A stretch of 10,660 nucleotides of DNA from a virus, in the IMG/VR virus record IMGVR_UViG_3300035698_019127; one strand, given 5' to 3'. Below are positions 2,205 through 2,892 of the stretch, piece after piece; position 1 is the stretch's first letter; every line of letters begins with the position of its first letter. Below the pieces are notes generated by a model, which saw nothing but the letters and a program-made list of their open reading frames with translations, had not been told where the DNA came from and searched no databases. A program made the position numbers and the translations under genes.

Positions 2205-2883
2205 TGCCAAACACACCCGCACTCTCCGGATCCTCAAGCGTGACGGACCCCACTGCTGCCACTGTGGTCACCTCATCCTGTCCGTCAAGGGCTGGCACAC
2301 ATCCCAGTTCAAGGGCATGGACGTGTCCATCTTCAATGAGGGCACTGTCGAGTACTGTTTCACCAATGCTGCCCTCAGCGGAAGTGAACACCTGATGCGA
2401 GTAGCATGTGTGGACTGCGTTCAGGAAACAGGGCCCCTTCCCTGGCTCAATGACGGCTTCGAGCAAAGCCTGTCTGCCAAACCGTTGAAGCTCGCCCTCC
2501 AGAAGGACAACGGGCATTGCTGGCTCTGTAATCGCCCCATACTGCCCGCCTGGGAACTTCGTAGGCTTCGGGATGAGGGCAAACTCACAGAGCTGGCTGG
2601 GTACCGGATGGCCACCCGGGACCACTACGTCCCCGTCTCGGAGGGTGGGAAGAACGGCAACTACAACATGAGAGCCGCCTGCTACACCTGCAACAAGAAA
2701 CGAGGAATCGCCACCAACAACGGGGAGGACTACCGCACATGGCTACCTTCTGATAGAGTGTCTGTGGAGAACGGTGCTGATGGCCTTGAGACGGGATACC
2801 CAGATAGAATTCTAGGGGCCTTTAGCTCAGTTGGTCAGAGCGCGGCGCTCATACCGTCATGGTCACAGGTTCGAGTCCTGTAG
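2197..2883 (+). CDS. HNH endonuclease (two HNH/zinc-finger-like modules), phage homing-type
   Basis: Motifs seen: PHCCHCGH, then CWLCN....DHYVPVSEGGKNGNYNMRAACYTCNKKRG, which is the classic DH...P...GG...N...C..CN..K HNH pattern. ATG overlaps the M50 stop (ATGGCTAG). The last roughly 68 nt of the ORF run through the tRNA, so the true C-terminus is uncertain. Confidence 0.7.
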   Translation: MASAKHTRTLRILKRDGPHCCHCGHLILSVKGWHTSQFKGMDVSIFNEGTVEYCFTNAALSGSEHLMRVACVDCVQETGPLPWLNDGFEQSLSAKPLKLALQKDNGHCWLCNRPILPAWELRRLRDEGKLTELAGYRMATRDHYVPVSEGGKNGNYNMRAACYTCNKKRGIATNNGEDYRTWLPSDRVSVENGADGLETGYPDRILGAFSSVGQSAALIPSWSQVRVL

Positions 2884-2892
2884 GGCCCACCA
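2816..2892 (+). tRNA. tRNA with anticodon CAT (elongator Met, or Ile2 if C34 is modified); CCA encoded
   Basis: Hand fold: acceptor GGGCCTT/AGGGCCC (7 bp, one G-U), U8 A9, D-stem GCTC/GAGC with loop AGTTGGTCA (G18 G19), anticodon stem CGGCG/CGTCA, loop CTCATAC (U33, CAT, A37), variable loop TGGTC, T-stem ACAGG/CCTGT with loop TTCGAGT, discriminator A, CCA at 2890-2892. G1-C72 pairing and pyrimidine11:purine24 argue against an initiator. Confidence 0.85.

Follow-up and report, generated by a model that had tools for sequence, protein, structure and literature searches.

The locus and its tRNA gene

The window, which is the whole stretch of DNA analysed here (10,660 nucleotides of the virus record IMGVR_UViG_3300035698_019127), has eight credible ORFs, all on the + strand. 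The only tRNA that ARAGORN found in these 10.6 kb lies at 2816..2892 (+) and has the anticodon CAT. The features that are considered below are as follows.

1452..2204, + strand: M50 peptidase gene directly upstream of the HNH ORF, with three of the window's six AUA codons (PF02163, E = 1e-25)
2197..2883, + strand: HNH endonuclease ORF of 228 aa, which ends inside the tRNA with 22 codons and the stop (PF01844, PHROG)
2816..2892, + strand: tRNA gene, anticodon CAU, 77 nt, CCA encoded, sequence class tRNA-Ile2 (ARAGORN, Rfam, covariance models)
2818..2820, + strand: G3, C4 and C5, the 5' half of the acceptor pairs that separate Ile2 from Met (sequence; PMC1635315, PMC2500205, PMC11947777; 110-gene sample)
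2843..2859, + strand: anticodon arm CGGCG-CUCAUAC-CGUCA, with the mismatch C27·A43 (2843/2859), G29·U41 and C38 (2854) (sequence, sample comparison)
2850..2852, + strand: anticodon CAT; C34 at 2850 is the predicted lysidine site, the modification being putative (ARAGORN, anticodon at gene position 35)
2884..2886, + strand: G68, G69 and C70, the 3' partners of C5, C4 and G3 (basis as for 2818..2820)
2893..3135, no strand: spacer of 243 nt from the tRNA to the gene that follows (no HAD remnant, no Rfam family)
5791..6402, + strand: RNA ligase gene, candidate for tRNA repair (PF09414, below the curated cut-off; phrog_548; 59% identical to the ligase of locus L001)
8660..10063, + strand: RtcB RNA ligase gene, candidate for tRNA repair (PF01139, E = 5e-91; phrog_1075)

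The tRNA reads GGGCCUU UA GCUC AGUUGGUCA GAGC G CGGCG CUCAUAC CGUCA UGGUC ACAGG UUCGAGU CCUGU AGGGCCC A CCA. The original prediction, made from the letters alone, was of a real 77-nt CAU tRNA with an encoded CCA; ARAGORN and the Rfam model RF00005 agree with it, and in the covariance search that had been proposed as a check RF00005 matched 2816-2889 over the full model (61.8 bits, gathering score 29, E = 9.4e-12). All seven pairs of the acceptor stem are intact, and the conserved tertiary positions are in place (U8, A14, G15/C48, G18G19, G53-C61, T54-Psi55-C56 and A58). The features claimed for the gene (G1-C72, C11-G24, C4-G69, C5-G68 and CCA) could all be read in the sequence, together with A73, and its anticodon stem is CGGCG/CGUCA, not the GGG/CCC type. 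An initiator tRNA-fMet, for which the comparison used a C1·A72 mismatch, A11-U24 and three G-C pairs at 29-31/39-41, was ruled out by G1-C72, C11-G24 and G29·U41. The unconstrained MFE fold was not a cloverleaf and was unexceptional (z = -1.8); MFE folds of tRNAs commonly miss the cloverleaf, and a covariance model is the relevant test.

The product of 2197..2883 is a predicted HNH endonuclease, with a PF01844 match at residues 137-169 (28.4 bits against a cut-off of 21.4) and matches to 15 PHROG HNH families, none of which extends past about residue 192. The first stop of this ORF, TAG at 2881-2883, corresponds to tRNA positions 65-67 and gives an overlap of 68 nt, the length originally estimated. 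Similarity to the sole HNH homologue is clear to about residue 193 (nt 2775) and weak beyond it; the tRNA starts 40 nt past the end of this clear HNH-HAD homology, and the homologue has a HAD domain where the window ORF covers the tRNA. The description of the tRNA as embedded in the HNH gene is therefore true of the ORF, but conservation does not extend to the tail over the tRNA. Because of this unconserved tail, and because the homologue has HAD in its place, the overlap is most simply seen as a side effect of a rearrangement where the HNH module ends, the ORF presumably running on to the first stop, which happens to fall in the tRNA. A tblastn search of the homologue (P0001) against 2601-3300 matched only its HNH part, with no HAD remnant after the tRNA at E <= 10, and no att-like second copy of the tRNA 3' end was found within the window.

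Between 2100 and 3300, neither strand had a terminator-like site and the + strand had no sigma-70-like promoter; the sole promoter-like match, on the minus strand inside the tRNA, was disregarded. Since the ORFs are all on the + strand and no + strand promoter or terminator flanks the tRNA, it is probably cotranscribed with the M50 and HNH genes, and it would then be released by host RNase P and 3' trimming. Such excision would remove the stop codon from that copy of the HNH mRNA, because the stop lies inside the tRNA.

A phage origin is indicated by the MVP-like protein of the window, which matches phage genomes of 462-735 kb, and by the 457-aa ORF, for which matches were obtained to phrog_29287 and to two jumbo phages, Atu_ph07 and SCTP-2. 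No close viral relative came up when these two proteins and the HNH protein were used for scans, megablast of the whole window against phages gave no match, no record has exactly the RtcB protein of the window, and the exact tRNA sequence is absent from IMG/VR. Three loci which share the HNH and RNA ligase genes with the window (L001-L003) have no CAU tRNA. Two huge-phage loci (L249, L250) have only the MVP-like gene in common with it and no tRNA within 12 kb, and the neighbourhood in Atu_ph07, where all genes are annotated as 'hypothetical', has no synteny with the window.

Assignment to the Ile2 or the Met class

The acceptor pairs G3-C70, C4-G69 and C5-G68 mark bacterial tRNA-Ile2 and are read by TilS enzymes, and the window tRNA has all three. 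A 3-70 pair other than C-G (G3/A3, C70/U70) is reported to exclude Met and fMet (Silva 2006, PMC1635315), and according to the same study G3-C70 discriminates completely against Met. TilS of E. coli requires C4-G69 and C5-G68 (PMC2500205), in agreement with the original prediction, and TilS of B. cenocepacia requires G3:C70 and C4:G69, the 3:70 pair being critical (PMC11947777).

For comparison, we took elongator-type CAU tRNAs from randomly chosen GTDB species (110 unique sequences), among which acceptor-stem rules set the labels of 73 Ile2-class and 37 Met-class genes. Under these labels G3-C70 is present in 63 of the 73 Ile2-class genes and in 0/37 Met-class genes; C4 (56/73) and C5 (63/73) prevail in the former, and neither is among the top three bases per position in the latter. 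The Met-class genes of the sample have C3-G70 in 35 of 37 cases, otherwise U3-A70, and bases other than C at positions 4 and 5. The acceptor-defined classes are real: columns 8-65 alone separate them, with leave-one-out errors of 1/73 and 2/37. Average-linkage clustering on the same columns failed to separate the classes, and the ratios of mean distances gave a weak signal (0.95 for the window). Labels independent of the sequence were provided by gene context: 16/73 Ile2-class genes and 0/37 Met-class genes adjoin rpoD (p = 0.001), and E. coli ileX is likewise near rpoD. Adjacency to rpoD can thus serve as a cheap label for Ile2 genes that does not need their sequence.

With a per-column profile over all columns, the window tRNA scored +44.3 bits, compared with an Ile2-class median of +46. 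Its body (columns 8-65) alone scored -0.2 bits and fell in neither class (medians +12 for Ile2 and -11 for Met) because of C27, A43, C38 and G28-C42. We do not take this score as a sign of real ambiguity, as C27·A43 and C38 are also found in rpoD-linked Ile2 genes.

The isotype models that had been proposed to decide between Ile2 and Met were represented by home-made covariance models, R1 (Ile2) and R2 (Met), as stand-ins for tRNAscan-SE 2.0. The window tRNA scored 81.9 bits with R1 and 69.7 bits with R2, and these home-made models placed the controls ileX and metT on the correct sides; R2 ranked E. coli metT above the window tRNA. The differences (R1 - R2) were as follows.

Window tRNA: +12.2 bits
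E. coli ileX: +9.1 bits
tRNA-Ile of the E. coli Ile-Arg-Gly tRNA cluster (RefSeq label): +6.3 bits
Phage Konradin tRNA-Ile: +15.0 bits
E. coli metT: -3.6 bits
Met-type CAU tRNAs of phage arrays: -2.0 to -10.6 bits

The Ile2 reading, which had been left open against Met, is thus preferred by the acceptor-stem rules, the sample profile and the covariance models, and we regard the gene as quite probably a tRNA-Ile2 of a jumbo or huge phage, of whose genome the window is a fragment.

The alternative that survives best is an elongator tRNA-Met, with C34 unmodified or acetylated, which would be charged by MetRS through its CAU anticodon and would supplement AUG decoding; we consider it unlikely. MetRS is expected to charge any CAU tRNA that TilS leaves unmodified, ARAGORN labels the gene Met (from the anticodon), and the window has 64 AUG codons against 6 AUA codons. 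The T and D arms resemble E. coli metT, and the best match of the window tRNA in E. coli is elongator tRNA-Met in 5422 of the 5425 matching records (75.7%, positions 8-77). We rejected this BLAST similarity as a classifier, as metT outranks ileX only through the shared D and T arms. C27, G28-C42, C30-G40 and C38 are Met-like in the profiles, and C30-G40 belongs with C27-G43 (critical) and G44 to the determinants of ac4C formation by TmcA in E. coli (PMC2500205). However, the critical C27-G43 pair is not formed in the window tRNA (C27·A43) and position 44 is U instead of G, so that, with G3-C70, C4 and C5 in the acceptor stem, only C30-G40 fits an elongator tRNA-Met. Nor are C27·A43, G28-C42 and C38 an argument for Met, because C27·A43 and C38 recur in genes beside rpoD and C38 recurs in L263, the closest phage relative; such Met-like body features are also seen in rpoD-linked Ile2 genes. 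Further points against Met are the complete negative discriminator G3-C70, seen in none of the 37 sampled Met genes, the positive TilS determinants C4-G69 and C5-G68, and the 12.2 bits in favour of the Ile2 model.

As a tRNA-Ile2, the transcript would have its C34 converted to lysidine by the TilS of the host, which would change its charging from MetRS to IleRS and its decoding from AUG to AUA, and the phage would in this way add to the AUA-reading tRNA that is scarce in a GC-rich host. The two AUA codons given as examples for this rationale were confirmed (Ile115 in the HNH ORF, Ile47 in the M50 ORF), and the proposed codon count showed that AUA is used in the phage ORFs. It is rare, however, with 6 of 2933 codons in the window (2.05 per 1000) and 6 of 146 Ile codons (4%), so that the argument from codon supply is thin in the window and the benefit would be small here. 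Compared with rpoD, dnaG and maeB of the bacterial lineage whose tRNA also has C38, in which AUA is absent (0/5145), the window's 6/2933 is significantly higher (p = 0.002); we give this contrast little weight, because that this lineage is the host is speculation, and rare codons tend to be kept out of housekeeping genes.

The atypical anticodon arm

The anticodon-arm oddities of the window tRNA (C27·A43, G29·U41 and C38) had not been mentioned in the original prediction; the G·U pair sits in an anticodon stem that is weak. In the sample, the Ile2-class genes typically have G27 (50/73), U43 (56/73) and A38 (72/73); C38 occurs in 0/73 of them, and C27·A43 is rare there. A38 is reportedly listed as an IleRS element in E. 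coli, by Nureki et al. in 1994. A random sample of 108 viral CAU tRNAs of the GGGCC type also lacked C38. On the other hand, C27·A43 together with C38 recurs in bacterial tRNAs beside rpoD, for which R1 - R2 is +7 to +15 bits, and C38 with a 27·43 mismatch (A·A) is present in L263. Throughout the clade of the window, L263 and L007, A43 stands opposite a non-pairing base. G27·U43 and A38 are accordingly typical of Ile2 but not strictly defining. As natural variants with C38 and C27·A43 occupy an ileX-like site beside rpoD, A38 and G27·U43 are not obligatory for the class, which bears on the recognition rules of IleRS, TilS and t6A formation.

If the window tRNA, L263 and L007 form a phage clade of Ile2-type tRNAs, the open 27·43 position, with C38 in two of the three, might be adaptive: the acceptor stem would keep recognition by TilS and IleRS, the arm would escape a host anticodon-arm nuclease or a competing C34 modifier, and RtcB and the RNA ligase would provide a repair back-up. 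Each transcript would also yield either the mature tRNA or a terminating HNH message, since the HNH stop is within the tRNA, and endonuclease expression would thereby be inversely coupled to tRNA maturation. We put this combined proposal forward as a conjecture with a rather low probability.

A related proposal is that counter-defence is the main role of the gene, namely a nuclease-insensitive substitute for a host tRNA cut by an anticodon-loop nuclease, with C38 and the open 27·43 position for escape and repair by RtcB and the RNA ligase of the same operon as back-up. This proposal is compatible with the Ile2 identity and concerns why the phage keeps the gene. The original prediction had suggested that the tRNA might itself be a substrate which the neighbouring ligases protect. 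Phage tRNAs have been proposed to bear anticodon-loop substitutions that evade host tRNases (PMC10264068), and the absence of C38 from both samples (0/73 bacterial and 0/108 viral genes), the unpaired A43 in the three phage sequences, the RtcB and RNA ligase genes 3-7 kb downstream on the same strand, and an AUA use too low for a compelling codon supply are all in line with it. Yet no nuclease that targets tRNA-Ile2 was identified here, the close relative L007 has A38, and the presence of ligase genes within 7 kb says little in a genome of jumbo-phage size. Moreover, C38 and C27·A43 are native in the bacterial rpoD-linked gene and need not be escape mutations, and we judge counter-defence as the main role to be very unlikely.

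A non-functional relic or recombination scar, for example from integration or rearrangement at the HNH-HAD junction, that is unused in translation would suit the position of the gene 40 nt after the clear HNH-HAD homology, its overlap with an ORF, the one mismatch and one G·U pair of its anticodon stem and its solitary state (the relatives lie in arrays), but is hardly credible given the 61.8 bits over the full model, the intact tertiary nucleotides, seven acceptor pairs and CCA, the single copy of the tRNA 3' end in the window and the occurrence of the odd features in presumably functional genes.

Comparison with known tRNAs

Like bacterial tRNA-Ile2 (ileX/ileY, in which TilS converts CAU to LAU), the window tRNA has an elongator cloverleaf with CAU, A37 and A73, and G3-C70, C4-G69 and C5-G68 as in most members; U44 and A51-U63 are Ile2-like, and the margin under the Ile2 model is similar to that of E. 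coli ileX. Unlike them, it has C27·A43 instead of G27·U43, C38 instead of the near-universal A38, and G29·U41, and it is encoded by a phage and overlapped by a protein ORF, its modification and charging as Ile2 being predicted. E. coli elongator tRNA-Met (metT/metU) shares CAU, C30-G40 and similar D and T arms with the window tRNA, but has its own C3-G70, U4-A69 and A5-U68, a C27-G43 pair, G44 and A38.

An uncultured bacterial lineage of high GC content has an rpoD-linked tRNA(CAU) (for example L322, L273, L261 and L335) that differs from the window tRNA in 12-15 of 65 columns. The two have in common the GGGCC acceptor, the D loop AGUUGGUCA, C27·A43, C38 and the T loop UUCGAGU; the bacterial gene has the anticodon stem CCCGG/CCGGA and another T stem, and is cellular, in a dnaG-rpoD-tRNA arrangement. 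The closest sequences found are metagenomic, L263 (Ga0049081_10023504) with 5 differences and L007 (IMGVR_UViG_3300042559_001610) with 8 differences in 65 columns. The models assign both to the Ile2 type (+9.7 bits for L263, +10.7 bits for L007), and both have the same acceptor, D and T arms as the window and A43 opposite a non-pairing base, with C38 in L263. They lie, however, in arrays of nine tRNAs and have no protein-coding gene in common with the window; L007 has A38, and L263 has an additional A31·C39 mismatch.

Among named phages, CAU tRNAs labelled tRNA-Ile are found in the Acinetobacter T4-like phages Konradin, Stupor and Abraxas and in the phiKZ-like phages PA02 and Churi (82-87% identical). 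In the Acinetobacter phage genes that we read, the GGGCC acceptor stem and the T arm ACAGG-UUCGAGU-CCUGU are those of the window tRNA. These tRNA-Ile-labelled genes are, as in the window, in large virulent phages near RNA-repair genes, such as the RNA ligase or 2',3'-cyclic phosphodiesterase genes in L004 and L005. In contrast to the window, where the gene is solitary in 10.6 kb and overlaps the HNH ORF, L004 and L005 have A38, G27·U43 and tRNA clusters. The relatives also share their arrays with a separate Met-type CAU tRNA. The label tRNA-Ile was given by some depositors to the nearest phage tRNAs, although the CAT anticodon alone would not suggest Ile; for phage tRNAs of this type, most depositors chose Met and few chose Ile. 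As tools that use only the anticodon call the gene tRNA-Met, the Ile2 call changes the decoding capacity inferred for the phage. Phage-carried tRNA-Ile2 is already known, and the window gene is unremarkable apart from a small number of unusual details, and opens no new kind of system. It would add a jumbo-phage case, here with a GC-rich genome in which AUA is rare, to the large virulent phages that carry an AUA reader.

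The tRNA gene and its phage setting

ARAGORN makes a sole tRNA call for the window, 2816..2892 (plus strand, anticodon CAT), and the Rfam tRNA model, the single Rfam family matched anywhere in the window, aligns to 2816-2889 over its full length (61.8 bits against a gathering score of 29, E = 9.4e-12). The CAU tRNA of the original prediction is thus also called by a covariance search.

Window tRNA in standard numbering
5' part: GGGCCUU (1-7) UA GCUC (10-13) AGUUGGUCA GAGC (22-25) G26
Anticodon arm: CGGCG (27-31) CUCAUAC (32-38) CGUCA (39-43)
3' part: UGGUC (44-48) ACAGG (49-53) UUCGAGU CCUGU (61-65) AGGGCCC (66-72) A73 CCA

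All seven acceptor-stem pairs are formed (U6·G67 as a wobble), the usual tertiary nucleotides are in place and CCA is encoded; the predicted features G1-C72, C11-G24, C4-G69 and C5-G68 are all present. The window has a GC content of ~58%, and its credible ORFs all lie on the plus strand.

Credible ORFs of the window
164-1066, plus, 300-aa protein, phrog_5889 (PHROG match)
1452-2204, plus, M50 peptidase (Pfam match)
2197-2883, plus, HNH endonuclease, 228 aa (Pfam and PHROG; HNH motif at aa 137-169)
3136-5691, plus, major-vault-protein-like protein, 851 aa (shoulder domain PF11978, E = 2e-25, plus vault repeat)
5791-6402, plus, RNA ligase (Pfam and PHROG)
6456-7829, plus, 457-aa protein, phrog_29287 (end-to-end match, E = 4e-117; family without known function)
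8035-8613, plus, pyruvoyl-dependent arginine decarboxylase (PF01862, E = 9e-23)
8660-10063, plus, RtcB (Pfam and PHROG)

Relatives of the vault-like protein in the phage collection were limited to three entries named 'uncultured phage' (LR756500/501/503, ~40% identity), with genome sizes of 462-735 kb. For the 457-aa protein, tblastn matched only two jumbo phages, Atu_ph07 of Agrobacterium (490 kb) and SCTP-2 of Salicola (440 kb), at 37-40% identity. The window therefore most likely derives from the genome of a jumbo or huge phage. The 457-aa ORF could mark the Atu_ph07/SCTP-2 group. No near-identical contig was found across the collections searched. A vault-like protein is unusual in huge phages, and none of the PHROG families searched matches it or the arginine decarboxylase. 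In the phage operon, the gene for the latter immediately precedes RtcB, and a second RNA ligase is encoded at 5791-6402.

Elongator tRNA-Met or tRNA-Ile2

E. coli TilS has C4-G69 and C5-G68 as positive determinants and the tRNA-Met pairs U4-A69 and A5-U68 as negative ones (Ikeuchi 2005, summarised in PMC2500205); the elements named in the original prediction agree with this summary and are present in the window tRNA. For B. cenocepacia TilS, the required pairs are G3:C70 and C4:G69 (PMC11947777), and all three pairs (G3-C70, C4-G69, C5-G68) occur in the window tRNA. The Met-specific acetylase TmcA has C27-G43, C30-G40 and G44 as determinants; of these, the window tRNA has only C30-G40, and the critical pair 27-43 is an unpaired C·A. 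The window thus encodes an intact CAU tRNA of elongator type and Ile2 sequence class, with the acceptor pairs that TilS enzymes read.

The Ile2 models of tRNAscan-SE 2.0 were trained on the classification of Silva et al. 2006 (PMC8450103), which covers 1070 CAT tRNAs from 234 genomes and reports that a 3-70 pair other than C-G (G3/A3, C70/U70) excludes Met and fMet (PMC1635315). We scanned a species-level genome collection with a pattern constrained at position 24 and in the anticodon and T loops alone, and 110 unique bacterial elongator-type CAU tRNAs were extracted with ARAGORN from 120 random loci of many phyla. By the acceptor stem, 73 were assigned to the Ile2 class (G3-C70 or A3-U70, or C4-G69 plus C5-G68) and the remaining 37 to the Met class. 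A leave-one-out per-column profile of positions 8-65 only misassigned 1/73 Ile2 and 2/37 Met sequences. In this random species sample, rpoD adjoins 16 of the 73 Ile2-class genes versus none of the 37 Met-class genes (Fisher p = 0.001), and this adjacency serves as a context-based Ile2 label independent of the tRNA sequence; E. coli ileX is located 710 nt downstream of rpoD. The order rpoD then CAU tRNA is widespread (L132, L151, L175, L187, L190, L195, L207, L216, L222-L224, L229, L243 and other sampled loci, and E. coli locus L248).

With the all-column profile, the window tRNA scored +44.3 bits for Ile2 (Ile2-class median, +46). Covariance models were also built from 73 Ile2-class (R1) and 36 Met-class (R2) sequences.

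Covariance scores in bits, with classes defined by the acceptor stem; all tRNAs below the first are outside the training set
Window tRNA: R1 81.9, R2 69.7, difference +12.2
E. coli ileX: R1 92.5, R2 83.4, difference +9.1
tRNA-Ile of the E. coli Ile-Arg-Gly cluster (RefSeq label): R1 82.1, R2 75.8, difference +6.3
Phage Konradin 'tRNA-Ile': R1 94.7, R2 79.7, difference +15.0
E. coli metT: R1 83.4, R2 87.0, difference -3.6

Between the two identities left standing by the original prediction, the models, whose classes are acceptor-stem-defined, favour Ile2 over Met by +12.2 bits. The gene would act as an elongator tRNA-Met if the host TilS rejects it, but both G3-C70, C4 and C5 and the model scores disfavour this identity, which we regard as improbable, though the best placed of the alternatives.

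Position 72 also varied in the sample: T was found in 25/37 elongator tRNA-Met genes (e.g. L159, L172 and L209; sample loci L135-L242), giving a G1·U72 wobble in those starting with G1, in contrast to C72 in 67/73 Ile2-class genes.

Overlap with the HNH gene, expression and codon use

The HNH ORF ends with TAG at 2881-2883 (tRNA positions 65-67), which bears out the proposed 68-nt overlap of its 3' end with the tRNA. Its single detectable homologue, P0001 (L001 1281-2201; 306 aa, 36% identity), is a fusion of an HNH module with a HAD_SAK_2 phosphatase domain. Clear similarity stops at a common motif, TWLPSD (window aa 188-193, ending at nt 2775). The HAD domain of P0001 follows it directly; in the window, 13 further codons separate it from the tRNA. 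No PHROG HNH profile reaches beyond ~aa 192 of the window ORF, and no trace of a HAD domain was detected downstream in the window. The P0001 locus (L001) encodes an RNA ligase 59% identical to that of the window; the stretch separating the HNH gene from the ligase gene contains the HAD domain plus two small ORFs in L001, and the tRNA plus the vault-like gene in the window. This is most simply read as a rearrangement at the domain boundary that left the ORF running on to the first stop, by chance in the tRNA. L001, like L002 and L003, is phage-like, with genes for RNA ligase, ADP-ribosylglycohydrolase/NADAR, Cpn10, CinA, phosphatases and tRNA-Glu.

Overlaps of this sort are uncommon, yet the window is not the sole case: of the 785 tRNAs present in the fetched loci, 12 have a same-strand ORF of 200 aa or more running into them. 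In most of the 12, the ORF ends after 10 nt, at the TAG formed by U8-A9-G10; the overlap in the window is the longest.

Neither a plus-strand sigma-70-like promoter nor an intrinsic terminator was found flanking the tRNA, so co-transcription with M50-HNH followed by excision is likely. The only sigma-70-like promoter match in 2100-3300 is on the minus strand (2809-2838, inside the D arm; CTGACC, 18-nt spacer, TAGAAT) and is probably a chance match. After transcription together with M50-HNH, the tRNA would be processed by host RNase P and by 3' trimming; host TilS would then turn C34 into lysidine, and IleRS would charge the tRNA for decoding AUA. An HNH message from which the tRNA is excised would lose its final 22 codons together with the stop.

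The eight window ORFs (2933 codons; GC3 = 0.73) contain 6 ATA, 24 ATT and 116 ATC, so that AUA is needed but, at 2.05 per 1000 codons and 4% of Ile codons, rare. Of the six ATA codons, the M50 gene has three, the 457-aa gene two and the HNH gene one, with none in the vault-like gene or RtcB. The two AUA examples first cited (HNH and M50) are correct and AUA is not essentially absent, but the codon-supply argument is weak on the window alone.

The anticodon arm and known phage tRNAs

By positions 8-65 alone, the window tRNA scored -0.2 bits (medians, Ile2 +12 and Met -11), with negative contributions from C27, A43, G28-C42, C38 and G26. C38 occurred in 0/73 sampled Ile2-class genes and 0/108 viral GGGCC-type CAU tRNAs drawn at random. 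When tRNAs of this GGGCC type were scanned for specifically with C38, 4 viral and 85 metagenomic contigs were recovered, and a large bacterial family with the arm CCCGG-CUCAUAC-CCGGA has both C27·A43 and C38, a combination not seen in the 73 sampled Ile2 genes. This tRNA is ~2.4 kb or less (mostly <100 nt) from rpoD in 21 loci, with the order dnaG-rpoD-tRNA in several, on bacterial contigs of GC 65-70%. Since the rpoD-linked genes score +7 to +15 bits towards Ile2 (R1 - R2), both features are compatible with an ileX-type gene of a cell. The loci (L261, L273, L322, L335, L301, L310, L336 and others) belong to an uncultured high-GC lineage. Its rpoD, dnaG and maeB have 0 ATA in 5145 codons (p = 0.002 versus the window), a contrast tempered by the avoidance of rare codons in housekeeping genes; a host link between this lineage and the window phage would be a guess.

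The nearest sequences are tRNAs of metagenomic phage arrays, L263 (Ga0049081_10023504; 5/65 columns differ, C38) and L007 (IMGVR_UViG_3300042559_001610; 8/65, A38). In both, A43 faces a non-pairing base, and the models place both as Ile2-type (+9.7 and +10.7 bits, respectively). The arrays on L007, L328, L259, L325 and L252 have one Ile2-type beside one Met-type CAU tRNA, with differences opposite in sign, as would be expected of types with distinct roles. Both CAU tRNAs of L252, L259, L325 and L328 carry C38 in their loops (CUCAUAC and UUCAUAC), a hint that the preferred base at position 38 depends on the host or phage group.

That the arm changes are adaptive and that HNH expression is coupled to tRNA excision is, taken together, improbable. 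We give still less credence to a counter-defence role, compatible with Ile2 identity, in which the changes allow nuclease escape with RtcB and the ligase as back-up: such tRNase escape has been proposed (PMC10264068), but no identified nuclease supports it here, and the bacterial C38 genes weaken the case. A relic is very improbable, given the intact structure and the lack of repeats looked for in the window.

Ile2-class CAU tRNAs borne by phages are common and already known, and at least 120 viral contigs match the acceptor/anticodon pattern. The closest tRNAs in the phage collection, 82-87% identical, come from Acinetobacter T4-like and phiKZ-like phages; depositors labelled them mostly as tRNA-Met and several as tRNA-Ile, a label that the anticodon alone does not suggest for CAT tRNAs. 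The CAU tRNAs of Konradin and PA02, annotated as Ile, are of the same kind as the window tRNA, whose peculiarities are C38, the unpaired 27·43, its solitary position and the 68-nt overlap with a truncated HNH gene. These merit a remark in the annotation rather than a new category.
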